A stretch of 64,000 nucleotides of DNA from an uncultured Trueperaceae bacterium (GCA_963727505.1 CAVSGP010000005.1:1-64000), one strand, 5' to 3'. Shown: positions 42,216 through 49,216, numbered from the stretch's first letter. Translations and numbers: made by a program. The notes: generated from the letters alone by a model not told the origin.

Positions 42216-43457
42216 TCACGAGTGGCGTCGGTCCTGCGGGCCCCGCCAGAGCGCCGCGTGCTCGTCGCGCTTCCACCCCGGTGCGTGGAGCGACAGGGGG
42301 TTGCGGGCCCAACCGGCATCGAGCCGCTGCTGGCATGCTTCCCAGCTCGGCCCTCCGCCCGACGCGGTCGGCGCCTCGACGCAGAAGGCGCCGACCGCCG
42401 CGGCGACGGTCAACGCCTCCTCGGGCAACAGTCCACGCAGGAGCGCGGCGATGAAGCCCGCGCAGGTCGCGTCCCCGGCCCCGACCGTGTTGACGACCTC
42501 GGTCCTCAGGCTCGGGCTCCACAGCTCGCGATCGGCCCACGCGTCCACCTCGCGTGGTGTGGCGGACCCCATCGTGTGGAGCGCGTCGGTCATCGCGGTG
42601 CGAAGGTAGACGCCCTCCGACCCCATCTTGAAGAGCACCATCCTGGCGCCCATAGCGAGGAGCTCCCCGGCCAGTCGCGAGACGCGAGCGGCCTGCGCGC
42701 TTCGCCCGTCTGCGCCGGGCGCCGTCGGTTCTTCCTCGCGGGGCGTGTCGCGCAGCAGCACCACCGTCTCGTCGAAACTCGGCATGAACAGGTCTGTGTA
42801 GGGGAGGCTGCGCTCCAGGATCGCGCGCCAGTCGACCTGCCCGGAGGGCGATGCCGGGTCCGGCATCGCCATGTCGAGCGATACCGCCACGCCGCGCTCC
42901 CGCACGGCGCGCAGGAGCGAGGCTAGGGGCCGGCCTCCGTCCGCGTAGAGATGGGGCACCAGGGGCGGGTAGCCGAAGTGGAAGAGGCGGGCGCCCATGA
43001 CGAGGTCGAGATCGACGGCGTCGTTGTCGAACGTGGCGTAGGCGCCGGGCTCGTGCAGGAACATGCGTTCTCCACCGGGGGGTGTCAGTACCATCGTGTA
43101 CGACGTGGATGCGCCAGCCACCGTGGCGATGCCGCTCGTGTCGTCCGCGCCGCCGCGGACCAGAGCGTCGCGCAATGCGTCGCCCAACGCGTCATCCCCG
43201 ACCGTTCCCAGCAGCCGGGTGGGGACGCCCAGCCGTTGCAGCGCCAGGCCGGTGTTCGAGACGGCGCCCCCCGTGGCGAGCCGCGTGCCGCGGACCTCGA
43301 CCAGCGCTCCCGGCTCGAGCGACAGCCGCTCTCCCGCGATGCTGCACACGAGATCCAGGCAGACGTTTCCGGCGACCACCACATCGACGAGGCCGGTTCC
43401 GGCCGTGCGACCGCCGGCGTGCCCGCGTGCCGAGGACGGTCTCACGGTCGGCGCCAC
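42216..43457 (-). CDS. PfkB-family carbohydrate kinase
   Basis: GGAVSNTG.AL.RLG, VGDD.LG and NTVGAGDA..AGF. Start uncertain. Confidence 0.9.
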   Translation of the reverse strand: MAPTVRPSSARGHAGGRTAGTGLVDVVVAGNVCLDLVCSIAGERLSLEPGALVEVRGTRLATGGAVSNTGLALQRLGVPTRLLGTVGDDALGDALRDALVRGGADDTSGIATVAGASTSYTMVLTPPGGERMFLHEPGAYATFDNDAVDLDLVMGARLFHFGYPPLVPHLYADGGRPLASLLRAVRERGVAVSLDMAMPDPASPSGQVDWRAILERSLPYTDLFMPSFDETVVLLRDTPREEEPTAPGADGRSAQAARVSRLAGELLAMGARMVLFKMGSEGVYLRTAMTDALHTMGSATPREVDAWADRELWSPSLRTEVVNTVGAGDATCAGFIAALLRGLLPEEALTVAAAVGAFCVEAPTASGGGPSWEACQQRLDAGWARNPLSLHAPGWKRDEHAALWRGPQDRRHS

Positions 43458-43485
43458 GCCCCGAAGTCGCGGCTCGCCCGCACCC

Positions 43486-44310
43486 TCACGCCTTCACGTG
43501 CACGCGCAAGAGCCGGATCTTCTCGCGTGCCACTCGCTTGAGCGCTTCTCTCGCAACCGGGAGCACCTCGTAGTGCACCGTTGCCTCCGGCGCCGCCTGG
43601 CGCCAGGCCTCCACCAGAGCGCGGAACAGGGCAGCTCCGATGTTCACCTTGACGACGCCGAGCTCGGTCGCCCGCGCGAGGTCGTCGGCCGGGATGCCCG
43701 ACCCGCCGTGCAACACCAGCGGCCCGCGAACGGCGTGAGCGATCGCCTCGAGCCGGTCCAGGTCGAGCTTGCTCGGCTGCCCGTGGCGGGAGCCGACCGA
43801 GCAGGCCACCATGTCGGCTCCGGTCTCGCGCATGAGGGTGGCGGCCACCTCGGGCTCGGTCAGATGGACGCCGCTCTCGCCCTCGCCGCCACCGAAGCCA
43901 CCGGCCGCGGTCTCCATGGAGGCGCCCGCCGCGTGCGCGACGGTCGCGATGGTCCTCGAAGCGGCGATGTTCTCGTCCAGGGGGAGTTCGTCGCCGTCGA
44001 ACATCACCGAGGAGTAGCCGGCCCGCAGGCATGCCACGGCCCGGTCCAGGCCGTCGCCGTGGTCCAGGTGCAGCATGACGGGGACGCTGGCCTCGTCGGC
44101 CAGTGCCTGCACCATGGCGGCGAACACCCGGGGCGTTGCCTGCTCCAGGTCGCCTGGGTAGGTCTGCAGGATGATGGGCGCGCGTTCTTCCTCGGCCGCC
44201 TCGATGCAGGCGCGTCCCATCTCCAGATTGGAAACGTTGAAGGCCGGCAGGGCGTAGTGGCCCGCTAGGGCCGCCTCGATCAGCGAACGACCGTCGGACA
44301 CGAAGGGCAT
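43486..44310 (-). CDS. Class II ketose-(bis)phosphate aldolase
   Basis: AFNV.N.E, HLDHG, SSVMFDG, G..HG, VLHGGSG and KVNIG. Confidence 0.92.
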   Translation of the reverse strand: MPFVSDGRSLIEAALAGHYALPAFNVSNLEMGRACIEAAEEERAPIILQTYPGDLEQATPRVFAAMVQALADEASVPVMLHLDHGDGLDRAVACLRAGYSSVMFDGDELPLDENIAASRTIATVAHAAGASMETAAGGFGGGEGESGVHLTEPEVAATLMRETGADMVACSVGSRHGQPSKLDLDRLEAIAHAVRGPLVLHGGSGIPADDLARATELGVVKVNIGAALFRALVEAWRQAAPEATVHYEVLPVAREALKRVAREKIRLLRVHVKA

Positions 44311-44383
44311 GGGATCGACCTCCAGGGTGCGAGGCAGGGTGAGGGTCCCCACACCGGGTGCATTGCGAAACGTGCTTCGCCCG

Positions 44384-47386: not shown

Positions 47387-47414
47387 CGATCGACCGCTCC
47401 TGTACGCAAGAGGG

Positions 47415-47502
47415 GGGTTGGGCGCCGGCGGCGCCCAACCCTGGGAGTTTGCGTGCACCGTGTCATGTCGAGGCGCGTGAGCCGCTCCAGCGGCTCACGC
47501 GC
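47415..47502 (-). other. Two strong intercistronic hairpins downstream of the SBP gene
   Basis: 12-bp inverted repeat at 47415-47441 and 14-bp inverted repeat at 47473-47502. Confidence 0.65.
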
Positions 47503-47512
47503 GGAGTCTCCG

Positions 47513-49216
47513 CTACTTCAACGATTCCTGGAAGACGTTGATCTGATCCTGACGGCCGATCTGATCGGTCGTGGTGTTCCAGCGCTTGGCGACCTGATCG
47601 AGGGCGGCCTGTGGGCTCATCTGGCCGGTGATGGCGGCCTGGATGTTCTGTTCGAGCGCGAGCGCGTAGTCGGGGGTTCCGGGGACACGCAGGTACTCGT
47701 AGGCCTTCTCGGTGAAGTTCTGGGCGTAGGCGTCGGAGATCTGCTTGATGTCGTCGGCGTTGAACCCGGCGCTCAGGTAGTTGTTGATGTTCGCGGAGCC
47801 GTTCGGCGGCAGGAAGTCCGTGTGCCGACCGAGGTCGATGCCGTCGAAGCCCCAGCGGGCGTTCCACAGGTGCATGGCCGGGCTGGAGAGGAAGGCGTAC
47901 AGAGCGTAGGTGGCGTCGGGGTGTTGTGAGAGCGAAGAGACCATGCCCGACCAGCTGGCGCCGGCCTCGTTCCCCACGTGGTTCGGTTGGCTCAGCGTGT
48001 CCCAGCTCTTGGTGGAGACGTTGTAGACCTCGGTGGAGCCCGGGACGGGCGCCACGCCCAGGTGGCCCTTCACCGGCGACTTGCCGTCCGGCGACTCCAC
48101 GATGGTGCCGGTGTCACCGAAGTTGATCTGGAAGACCGCCTGGCCCTCGGCGAACATGTTGAAGGAGGTGCCGAGGTCGATGGACGCGGGGTCCTGCGGG
48201 CCGCACTTGTAGAGGTCGACGAAGGTCTGCAGCCCCTTCACCGCCGCCGGATTGTTGATGAGGGGATCCATGGTCTTCGGATCGAACTGCAGGGTCTGGC
48301 TGTACCCCTGCGACGCTCCGCCAGGGACCACCCCGTACTGGGCCGCGACGGCCCGGTAGTACTCGAAGAACTGGCTCCCGATCTGAGCGGGCTCGACGAT
48401 GCCGTACAGCGGCTTGCCCGTGTTCAACGGGTCCTTGCCGTTGAAGTAGCACGACTCCTTCACGAGCTGGTCGAGCGTCGAGGGGACCACGAGGTCCTCA
48501 CCCGTCGCCTGTTTGTACGCTGCCTGGACGTCGGGGCTGTCGAGCACGTCCTTGCGGTAGTACAGCACGACGCCGTCGGAGTCCCAGGGGGCCGCGTACC
48601 AGGTGCTGCCCCAGCGGTAGAGCCGTTGCAGGCTGGGCTCGAGCACGCCGTCAAGACCCCACTGGGTGGGATCCTGGTTGGTGTTGTCGAACACGCCCGC
48701 GTACTTATCGGACTTCATGTAGTCGTTGAGAGGGACGATGAAGTTGCCGGAGACGAGGCTACCCATGAATGCCATCGGAACGACAAAGCCGTCGTAGGCT
48801 CCCGTTCCAGTGCGCACGTCGTTGAACATGACTGGGGCCAGGTCGTCGAACGGCTTCTGGACGACGTTGACCTTGGCGCCGGTGAGTGCCTCGAACGCCG
48901 GCACCCAGTTGATGATGCCGCCCGAGATGGCGCCCTTGTCGCCGGCCTGCAAGGTCATGATGTTCAGCGTGACGCCGGCGAAGGGCTTCGTGCCGCCGTT
49001 CTTCCAGGCGTCCGTGATCAGCGTGCCCAGCGTGCCGGGAGCGAAAGTGACGGTGTCACCGGGGTAGAGGCTCTTGACGACGAACGATCCGTCGGGCTGC
49101 TGCGTGACGTACTGGTCGCCTTGCGCGAACGCGACCGAAGCACAGAGCAAGAGCAGCGCTCCCAGGAGAATTCCGAGCCTACGATGTCCGACCATACGAA
49201 TCAACCTCCGATCCAT
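47513..49216 (-). CDS. Carbohydrate ABC transporter substrate-binding protein (family 1, N-terminally extended)
   Basis: Signal peptide, PWDSD...LYYRKD, P.T.D.L, P.INN and P.PGS. Lies upstream of MalF/G-type permeases. Confidence 0.88.
   Translation of the reverse strand: MDRRLIRMVGHRRLGILLGALLLLCASVAFAQGDQYVTQQPDGSFVVKSLYPGDTVTFAPGTLGTLITDAWKNGGTKPFAGVTLNIMTLQAGDKGAISGGIINWVPAFEALTGAKVNVVQKPFDDLAPVMFNDVRTGTGAYDGFVVPMAFMGSLVSGNFIVPLNDYMKSDKYAGVFDNTNQDPTQWGLDGVLEPSLQRLYRWGSTWYAAPWDSDGVVLYYRKDVLDSPDVQAAYKQATGEDLVVPSTLDQLVKESCYFNGKDPLNTGKPLYGIVEPAQIGSQFFEYYRAVAAQYGVVPGGASQGYSQTLQFDPKTMDPLINNPAAVKGLQTFVDLYKCGPQDPASIDLGTSFNMFAEGQAVFQINFGDTGTIVESPDGKSPVKGHLGVAPVPGSTEVYNVSTKSWDTLSQPNHVGNEAGASWSGMVSSLSQHPDATYALYAFLSSPAMHLWNARWGFDGIDLGRHTDFLPPNGSANINNYLSAGFNADDIKQISDAYAQNFTEKAYEYLRVPGTPDYALALEQNIQAAITGQMSPQAALDQVAKRWNTTTDQIGRQDQINVFQESLK

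Follow-up and report, generated by a model that had tools for sequence, protein, structure and literature searches.

A six-gene cassette for an unassigned sugar pathway beside the arabinose genes of an uncultured Trueperaceae bacterium

The FucI–FucK–FucA and RhaA–RhaB–RhaD routes for L-fucose and L-rhamnose turn a free aldose into a ketose, then a ketose-1-phosphate, and finally dihydroxyacetone phosphate (DHAP) and a neutral aldehyde. Isomerase, 1-kinase and aldolase are combined by the same logic in the sulfo-Embden–Meyerhof–Parnas pathways, sulfo-EMP and sulfo-EMP2 (YihS/SqvD, YihV/SqiK and YihT/SqiA), and inositol catabolism proceeds from aldose through ketose and phosphoketose to DHAP and an aldehyde by IolB, IolC and IolJ (5-deoxyglucuronate isomerase, 5-dehydro-2-deoxygluconokinase and 2-deoxy-5-keto-gluconate-6-phosphate (DKGP) aldolase), which are a cupin isomerase, a PfkB kinase and a PF01116 aldolase. 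In the Bacillus subtilis ara operon, the araNPQ genes for a substrate-binding protein (SBP) and two permeases lie downstream of the ara catabolic genes, under the arabinose repressor. Here we describe a cassette that has something of each of these systems, found in 64,000 nucleotides of DNA from an uncultured Trueperaceae bacterium (GCA_963727505.1 CAVSGP010000005.1:1-64000; ‘the window’). The genome carrying the window (G000) spans 3.26 Mb and is 97% complete; other G-numbers denote compared genomes, and L-numbers compared loci. The cassette occupies 42216-49216 on the minus strand, on which araB-araD-araA is followed by genes for an SBP, two permeases, an isomerase resembling phosphomannose isomerase (PMI), a class II aldolase and a PfkB kinase:

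47513..49216, minus strand: SBP of family 1, 567 aa, first gene of the cassette (Pfam SBP_bac_1, 76.5 bits against a cut-off of 26)
46451..47458, likely start 47386, minus strand: ATP-binding cassette (ABC) permease 1 (BPD_transp_1, 30.8 bits against 26.4)
45529..46449, minus strand: ABC permease 2, 1 nt after permease 1 (BPD_transp_1, 57.1 bits)
44384..45460, minus strand: PMI-like cupin isomerase of a distinct subfamily, 358 aa (PF20511 PMI_typeI_cat, 29.7 bits against 22)
43486..44310, or 44352 from an upstream GTG, minus strand: IolJ-related class II aldolase, 274 aa (PF01116 F_bP_aldolase, 258 bits)
42216..43457, minus strand: divergent PfkB-family sugar kinase, 413 aa (Pfam PfkB, 110.4 bits against 25.8)

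The best reading, which we hold with modest confidence, is that these genes would import a neutral sugar, isomerize the aldose to a ketose, phosphorylate this to the ketose-1-phosphate and split that into DHAP and a small aldehyde. The SBP and permeases would form a CUT1-type ABC importer, its ATPase encoded elsewhere, for a neutral sugar or sugar-like compound; the PMI-like cupin would convert the free, unphosphorylated aldose into a 2-ketose; the divergent kinase would phosphorylate the ketose at C1; and the IolJ-related aldolase would cleave the product, with DHAP as one fragment and a short uncharged aldehyde (for example, glycolaldehyde, lactaldehyde or glyceraldehyde) as the other. A neighbouring oxidoreductase may handle this aldehyde.

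The six genes, as listed in an initial annotation of this DNA, are confirmed by Pfam domains. Genes were chosen from the list of open reading frames (ORFs) by domain matches and third-position G+C (the window has ~70% G+C); the frame of permease 1 is 46451-47458 and not the ORF at 46446-47438, and the ORF of the isomerase (451 aa) extends to 45739, with homologues beginning at MDLYPLK. The cassette does lie directly downstream of araA, as had been claimed: the araA–SBP spacing is 292 nt, the genes of the unit are spaced by 1 to 126 nt, and neither these gaps nor that between araA and the SBP gene contain a terminator-like site (the scan gave two sites, both intragenic, where shuffled sequences average 4.2). 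Rfam at gathering score detected no riboswitch or other RNA element in 34000-56000. All three enzymes score below the NCBIfam equivalog cut-offs, in keeping with the initial description of an isomerase–kinase–aldolase unit of unassigned pathway with its own ABC importer.

The aldolase had been labelled a class II enzyme of the fructose-bisphosphate (FBP) type. This stands at the Pfam level (PF01116), where the catalytic Asp and metal-binding His residues are kept (HLDHG, H176 and H201, invariant in the alignment), and does not stand at the level of equivalogs, whose cut-offs are missed (best NF009497, 238.8 against 423; TIGR00167, 195.6 against 215.6). Ligands of the distal (C6) phosphate in class II FBP aldolases (FBA) are given, in the available excerpts of PMC10665668, as Ser49, Arg259 and the partner-subunit Arg280 (H. 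pylori numbering). At these positions, mapped by sequence alignment only, the window aldolase has Tyr, Phe and Tyr with a three-residue deletion, and all six cassette-type aldolases have Tyr (QTYPGD), Phe, Leu or Ser (NIGAALF and variants) and Tyr (xHY, with the three-residue deletion). The full window signature is QTYPGD / GSRHG / NIGAALF / VHY, and that of the housekeeping FBA of G000 is ALSEGG / GTSHG / NTDTDLR / DPR; this enzyme, the other of two PF01116 copies in the genome, scores 323 bits and keeps the Ser and both Arg residues (DTDLR and DPRK).

We then searched 364 genomes of the phylum for relatives of the aldolase (E<=1e-40), found them in 85, and compared 20 kb around 20 of them; six loci around which the filter called few neighbouring ORFs or none (L160, L163, L164 and L173-L175) were left out of the counts of context. 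Nine of the 20 loci (L162, L165, L166 and L167-L172) had an inositol context, with the aldolase beside an IolC-type kinase and several of iolG, iolD, iolE and iolA close by (L166 without a called IolC ORF). We take these nine aldolases to be IolJ because of the surrounding iol genes; the full set, iolB included, was checked by NCBIfam in L168 only, where scores against cut-offs were 883/715 for IolD, 412/355 for IolG, 304/205 for IolB, 378/300 for IolC and 570/448 for methylmalonate-semialdehyde dehydrogenase. In four loci (L157, L158, L159 and L161), and similarly in L008, the aldolase stood beside an FGGY kinase, some of these FGGY-linked loci also having a short-chain dehydrogenase/reductase (SDR), a true XylB, permeases or a PMI-like gene. 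Only L176 had the arrangement of the window.

The window aldolase is 53–60% identical to IolJ of the iol clusters, and it is an IolJ paralogue that falls outside the IolJ clade. Over 56 high-scoring segment pairs, IolJ rows carried QTYP[ASTD]D / GSEHG / N[IV]GS..Y / xHR, and window-clade and FGGY-linked rows QT[YS]PG[DE] / GS[RKVIM]HG / NIGA.. / xHY. A maximum-likelihood tree of 39 distinct rows, rooted at midpoint only and with the housekeeping row on a long branch, placed the 14 IolJ-signature rows in one clade (99/96) and the seven rows of the window clade in a separate one (100/100). The Arg of the IolJ xHR motif, which would be a carboxylate ligand, is Tyr in the window clade, as might be expected if the distal group of the substrate were neutral. 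Unlike IolJ, the window aldolase has no GSEHG/xHR signature.

The cassette thus follows the logic of IolB, IolC and IolJ without being the inositol pathway. Its isomerase is PMI-like rather than KduI/IolB-like, its kinase is only 27% identical to the IolC of a relative, and unlike the inositol system it has an ABC importer and a LacI-type operator in common with the ara genes. A role of the window aldolase in inositol catabolism was rejected, as tblastn with the IolD, IolE and IolB of a relative found no orthologue in G000 (IolD matched another thiamine-pyrophosphate enzyme at 27–28% identity; IolE and IolB had no match). As a separate observation, G000:C6:217538-218536 (L124) encodes a kinase 87% identical to the IolC of a same-genus relative, although iolD, iolE and iolB are absent; it adjoins a CUT1 ABC transporter, with an operator-like site at C6:219684.

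The sulfo-EMP2 pathway for sulfoquinovose could also be rejected. The aldolase does match PDB 8q57 and 8q58 (E 1e-43 to 1e-41), and SqiA is itself a PF01116 aldolase that lost the partner-subunit Arg (PMC10665668, available excerpts). According to the excerpts of PMC9594981 and PMC10665668, however, sulfoquinovose isomerases belong to PF07221 or, like SqvD, to the FucI-like PF02952, and the sulfo-EMP2 kinase SqiK is of the PfkA type (PF00365); among window ORFs scanned with Pfam there was no PF07221, PF02952 or PF00365 member and no sulfoquinovosidase. From the fucose and rhamnose routes the cassette differs in all three enzyme families, its aldolase being of the FBA/IolJ type (PF01116) and not the AraD type (PF00596), while the sister clusters of the cassette aldolase share with those routes an FGGY kinase beside the aldolase.

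The isomerase belongs to a family whose members are commonly labelled as PMI. Its closest PDB relative is the Bacillus-type class I PMI 1qwr (E 5e-31, residues 6-307), with which it shares the fold and the Glu/His metal ligands. It scores 73 against the TIGR00218 manA cut-off of 116.2, the PF20511 match (29.7 against 22) covers the N-terminal part only, and two features of canonical PMI are absent: the Q-x-H metal motif, here H-x-H..E..H (H98-x-H100, E118 and H176), and the SD-x-TYR-x-[FY]-DY segment. All eight subfamily members aligned (the cassette enzyme and seven homologues, from five phyla) have H-x-H, and in all of them SDLGQSVMPTDLYG stands where canonical PMI has SDLTYRLFDY. A second PMI-like gene of G000, 33% identical to the cassette isomerase, keeps both Q-x-H and SSDLTYRLFDY.

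A contig scan gave 246 relatives of the isomerase among 289 candidate stretches, and the best 80 loci (55–80% identity) were used for counts. They came from Trueperaceae, Rubrobacteraceae, Thermomicrobiales, Chloroflexota, cyanobacteria and Nitrososphaera; in a protein database, at least 1,580 proteins were related to it at E<=1e-20, and the source annotation of most was mannose-6-phosphate isomerase. A fructokinase-like PfkB gene lay directly downstream of the homologue in 39 of the 80 loci. Eighteen loci had an FGGY kinase gene, which in those inspected (for example, L074 and L024) immediately preceded the isomerase gene; one representative of these FGGY kinases exceeded the XylB cut-off (426 against 380). 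Other neighbours were a ribulose-phosphate 3-epimerase (15/80), a sugar porter (12/80) and, in cyanobacterial and some other loci, CUT2 ABC genes. Homologues of window genes were few: aldolase in five loci, SBP in three, kinase in two and araA in none. It is mainly because the neighbours are kinases of unphosphorylated sugars that we think the isomerase family acts on free sugars. FGGY kinase replacing PfkB beside the same type of aldolase fits a common reaction on the free ketose.

A replacement for xylose isomerase (XylA) was considered for the PMI-like enzyme and rejected, there being no complementary distribution: class I XylA was found in 16 of the 21 family genomes with a PMI-like gene and in 79 of 128 overall (a tally that includes G330, flagged unpublished). 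XylB is present and XylA absent in G000, G001, G004 and G005. In G000, which has no xylose isomerase of either class, the xylulokinase gene (C2:106577-107893, L185; above the XylB cut-off) is surrounded by housekeeping genes, for example those encoding MeaB and the delta subunit of DNA polymerase III. The class I xylose isomerase at G295/G003:C1:1463525-1464671, beside xylB, gives two overlapping matches in different frames (model positions 1-193 and 170-382), which suggests a frameshift or an assembly error. Two contigs of Nitrososphaera metagenome-assembled genomes (L069:7009-9074 and L071:5139-7204) carry members of the PMI-like subfamily at 56–57% identity, immediately behind an SDR gene; one would not expect so similar a bacterial-type sugar isomerase in ammonia-oxidizing archaea.

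The 17 NCBIfam matches of the kinase are all far below the cut-offs (best IolC_N, 85.5 against 300), its best PDB match is the 2-keto-3-deoxygluconate (KDG) kinase 1v19, and it ranks second-lowest by Pfam model score among 13 PfkB genes in G000. A C-terminal extension of ~45 aa is conserved, with relatives aligning to residue ~410. Remoter homologues (35–41% identity) were seen in three low-G+C loci (L105, L107 and L116), in a conserved run of genes for a DegT-type aminotransferase, a 218-aa protein of no known function, a Zn-dehydrogenase, a haloacid-dehalogenase-type phosphatase (absent in L116) and the kinase, followed in L105 and L107 by a sodium:solute symporter and a RhaM-like mutarotase; this run is another sugar cluster without an assigned pathway.

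The transporter genes say little about the ligand. The SBP has no match in NCBIfam, and its AlphaFold model (predicted local distance difference test 88.8) retrieved with Foldseek only generic CUT1 sugar or polyol binders (of disaccharides, polyols and sulfoquinovosyl glycerol), at 14–21% identity over ~0.6 of the model. For ligand class, a PDB sequence search gave weak matches only and the ESM Atlas unnamed clusters. SBP orthologues are 85–95% identical in L001, L003 and L087 and 37% in L008. An importer for arabino-oligosaccharides was rejected, as G000 has no match to PF06964 (glycoside hydrolase family GH51) or PF04616 (GH43) and the cassette has no glycosidase. The cassette resembles the B. 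subtilis ara operon in having an SBP and two permeases downstream of ara genes, but its transporter, unlike araNPQ, travels with isomerase, aldolase and kinase genes even where ara genes are absent, and G000 has no GH51 or GH43 arabinofuranosidase match.

Comparison of loci suggests that the cassette is a self-contained, movable catabolic unit of six genes. L003/L176 and L087 have all six genes in unchanged order; L087 is a metagenome contig (80–95% identity) that repeats the layout of the window from araB to a downstream CUT2 operon. The order from permeases to kinase is also kept, without the SBP, up to the contig ends in L086 and in L088, where permease 1 is cut by the contig end. In L003 and L176, perhaps loci of a single genome, the six genes have TetR and P450 genes upstream and an SDR gene downstream, and no ara gene within 8 kb. 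Conversely, in L182, of the same genus as the window, genes for an aldo/keto reductase, a major facilitator superfamily (MFS) transporter, a CUT2 ABC transporter and a Zn-dehydrogenase face araA-araD-araB-lacI with nothing between, and the cassette genes of that genome are on other contigs. Kinase orthologues of at least 52% identity were found in six of 128 family genomes, G000 included; all six, the five cassette-bearing genomes of the genus and G325 of another genus, have araA. This co-occurrence says little, because araA is present in seven of the ten genomes of the genus irrespective of the cassette and the genomes are related.

Placement of the cassette within the arabinose regulon, another claim of the initial annotation, was supported by operator-like sites around it, although co-regulation itself is a matter of interpretation. 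The relevant features of the window are:

49509-51014, minus strand: araA, L-arabinose isomerase (NCBIfam 779 against a cut-off of 622)
51053-51703, minus strand: araD, L-ribulose-5-phosphate 4-epimerase (NCBIfam 324 against 251)
51700-53457, minus strand: araB, L-ribulokinase (NCBIfam 743 against 583)
53693..54724, plus strand: LacI-family repressor gene, divergent from araB (LacI and Peripla_BP_3 domains)
38189..42163, plus strand: CUT2 ABC operon with a Zn-dependent dehydrogenase, convergent on the kinase gene (Pfam); its parts are SBP 38189-39190, ATPase 39222-40001, permease 40023-41030 and Zn-dependent dehydrogenase 41105-42163
49345..49358: putative LacI-type operator TGGGAACGTTAACC (minus-strand sequence), 129-142 nt before the start codon of the SBP gene and ~150 nt past the araA stop
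53465..53478: putative operator at araB, next to the -10 element of the one sigma-70-like promoter detected ahead of this gene
53631..53644: putative operator TGTGAACGTTCTCA, the best palindrome, in front of the lacI gene
37973-37986 and 38061-38074: two putative operators upstream of the CUT2 ABC/Zn-dehydrogenase operon

A palindromic motif, TGnGA(A/G)CGTT(C/A)AC, is common to the araB–lacI, araA–SBP and pre-CUT2 spacers. The five putative operators (37973, 38061, 49345, 53465 and 53631) are all intergenic. With up to one mismatch, the 13-mer had five matches at four places in the window against 0.62 expected, and the 10-mer GARCGTTMAC had four against 0.22 expected; genome-wide, the 10-mer matched 20 times in 3.26 Mb. 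A weight-matrix scan of G000 gave 18 matches at or above threshold, ten of them intergenic, with four window sites at the top by construction. The next-best match, C8:20628, reads CGTTAACGTTCACG and lies in G000:C8:19368-25263 (L123) between a second LacI gene and the divergent genes of a tripartite ATP-independent periplasmic (TRAP) transporter, beside a tagaturonate epimerase (UxaE) gene in a uronate cluster. As this site belongs to another LacI gene, related repressors seem to use similar sites. In L087, L001 and L003 (the last with a second site), the position that aligns with the operator ahead of the SBP gene also carries an operator-like sequence, sites equivalent to those of the CUT2 operon occur in L182 and L086, and L181 has an operator 88 nt past the araA stop, at the contig end. 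Because the operator recurs upstream of araB, lacI, the SBP gene and the CUT2 operon, we regard co-regulation of the cassette with araBDA by the local LacI repressor as supported; the LacI protein (325.9 against the NF007075 cut-off of 340) is presumed to be the regulator of this local regulon. The window CUT2 transporter was rejected as an orthologous partner of the cassette, being 24–42% identical to the CUT2 ATPase and permease in the related loci compared.

Together, the low equivalog scores, the separate housekeeping FBA and canonical PMI of G000 and the missing distal-phosphate ligands of the aldolase lead us to conclude, as far as can be judged from sequence, that these are not an ordinary mannose-6-phosphate (Man6P) isomerase, fructokinase and FBP aldolase; the cassette enzymes are specialized, diverged paralogues from known families.

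Stereochemistry may narrow the candidate substrates of such a pathway. Judged from their families, PMI-type isomerases would act on aldoses with the C2 and C3 hydroxyls on the same side, and the ketose phosphates cleaved by IolJ and FBA would be of D-threo (3S,4R) configuration. Because both rules would have to be obeyed, the self-consistent candidates may be lyxo-, manno- or gulo-configured neutral sugars, among them D-lyxose, D-mannose, 6-deoxy-D-mannose or 6-deoxy-D-glucose, and L-gulose. Of the sugars proposed in the initial annotation, tagatose and L-ribose (the latter through L-ribulose) lead to 3S,4S ketoses and L-lyxose leads to a ketose of 3R,4S configuration, so that all three would suit the nearest aldolase relatives (IolJ) less well. 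A bolder proposal, possible in our view but doubtful, is that the whole PMI-like family consists of free-sugar aldose–ketose isomerases and that the cassette encodes a naturally occurring ketose-1-phosphate pathway, drawn into the arabinose regulon, that degrades a sugar of lyxo or manno configuration; examples might be D-lyxose, converted via D-xylulose-1-phosphate into DHAP and glycolaldehyde, or a 6-deoxy-D-hexose yielding lactaldehyde. In the literature located, represented largely by titles and the beginnings of abstracts, the route from D-lyxose to xylulose-1-phosphate is described only as synthetic. The pathway type is thus known, and a limited search of such titles and abstract beginnings, weak evidence of absence from print, gave no match to this trio of enzymes in combination.

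Several points weigh against the neutral-sugar reading or its regulatory part. The operator pattern was derived post hoc from three sites, which leaves 37973 and 38061 as the only independent finds, and cross-recognition or chance similarity of operators is possible. The TYR-motif Arg, which we take to be the phosphate ligand of Bacillus-type PMI, was not found described as such in the literature searched, and the PMI-like family may still act on Man6P. The Arg of GSRHG in the window-clade aldolase might bind an anionic group. A length of 567 aa is seen more often in SBPs of oligosaccharide importers, although no glycosidase gene is part of the cassette. GH38 alpha-mannosidase genes adjoin distant kinase homologues (46–48% identity) in eight of 38 metagenome loci (L091, L092, L094, L097-L099, L101 and L102), where the kinase has the C-terminal extension and is divergent from a GH38 of ~1,030 aa, a neighbourhood that hints at ordinary mannose metabolism, and L093/L002 have an additional 1-phosphofructokinase-like gene between isomerase and aldolase.

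Among the alternatives, the one that survives best, though we think it unlikely, couples the cassette to AraA, as the initial annotation had also entertained. AraA would convert galactose into D-tagatose or D-fucose into D-fuculose, or would make L-ribulose, all of them 3S,4S ketoses; kinase and aldolase would degrade the product via the ketose-1-phosphate, and the PMI-like enzyme would serve as a side entry for a C2-epimeric aldose such as D-talose or L-ribose. Adjacency to araA in the window and in L087, the L181 operator just past the araA stop, the operator common to cassette and araB, and the presence of araA in all five cassette-bearing genomes of the genus and in G325 are consistent with this, as is the inclusion of tagatose-bisphosphate aldolases in PF01116 (the aldolase matches PDB 1gvf, E 2e-42). 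The general frequency of araA in the genus, however, weakens the co-occurrence, and the tie to AraA chemistry proved weak in other respects: the cassette keeps an isomerase of its own, it lies apart from ara genes in L003/L176, and in L182 the CUT2–Zn-dehydrogenase operon sits beside araA with no cassette between. The closest aldolase relatives of known context, IolJ, would have a D-threo substrate, as follows from the established pathway, and to our knowledge neither L-ribose nor D-talose is a natural nutrient.

An ordinary mannose/fructose module, in which a hexose kinase, a true Man6P isomerase and an extra FBP aldolase would feed imported mannose or mannosides into glycolysis, strikes us as improbable. 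The source annotations of the homologues as mannose-6-phosphate isomerase, 1qwr as best structural relative, and the GH38 and 1-phosphofructokinase-like neighbours described above speak for it, as does the lack of any other type I PMI in the two Rubrobacteraceae genomes checked (G001 and G002). Those genomes and the cyanobacterial G004 nevertheless have small type II PMI-like cupins and would therefore not rely on the PMI-like family for PMI activity; moreover, the aldolase has none of the three distal-phosphate ligands kept by the housekeeping FBA of G000, the isomerase falls below the manA cut-off without the canonical motif of the other PMI of G000, and we know of no PfkB-family mannokinase.

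Equally hard to sustain is an acid-sugar route after IolB/IolC/IolJ or KduI/KdgK, from a uronate-like or deoxy-uronate-like aldose to DHAP and an acid semialdehyde: the identity of the aldolase to IolJ of genuine iol clusters, the best kinase matches (IolC_N and 1v19), the GSRHG Arg and the SDR gene after the kinase in L003 would fit it, but Tyr takes the place of the IolJ xHR Arg in every window-clade and FGGY-linked row, sister rows of the same gene contexts have Val, Ile, Met or Lys instead of the GSRHG Arg, and G000 has no iolD, iolE or iolB.

Two further groups of genes in the window were noted. Beside lacI, 54814-58461 encodes an aldehyde dehydrogenase, a dihydrodipicolinate synthase-family protein (56343-57362) and a proline-racemase-family protein (57406-58461), as seen from Pfam families alone; the set presumably resembles hydroxyproline catabolism. 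At 35550-36629, upstream of an MFS gene, lies an aldo/keto reductase gene whose product is 70–73% identical to five Rubrobacteraceae reductases, encoded 3–7 kb from a PMI-like gene (L011, L014, L038, L044 and L049).

The cassette is one among many unassigned sugar clusters, and we see in it a solid lead for pathway discovery rather than a surprise in kind. It is directly testable, with a soluble SBP, three soluble enzymes, one repressor and five candidate sites. If the neutral-sugar pathway proved true, the widespread ‘mannose-6-phosphate isomerase’ annotation would need correction, a clade of IolJ-like aldolases would be recognized as ketose-1-phosphate aldolases, and bacteria of desert and saline soils and sediments would be credited with a new route for the catabolism of a sugar yet to be named.

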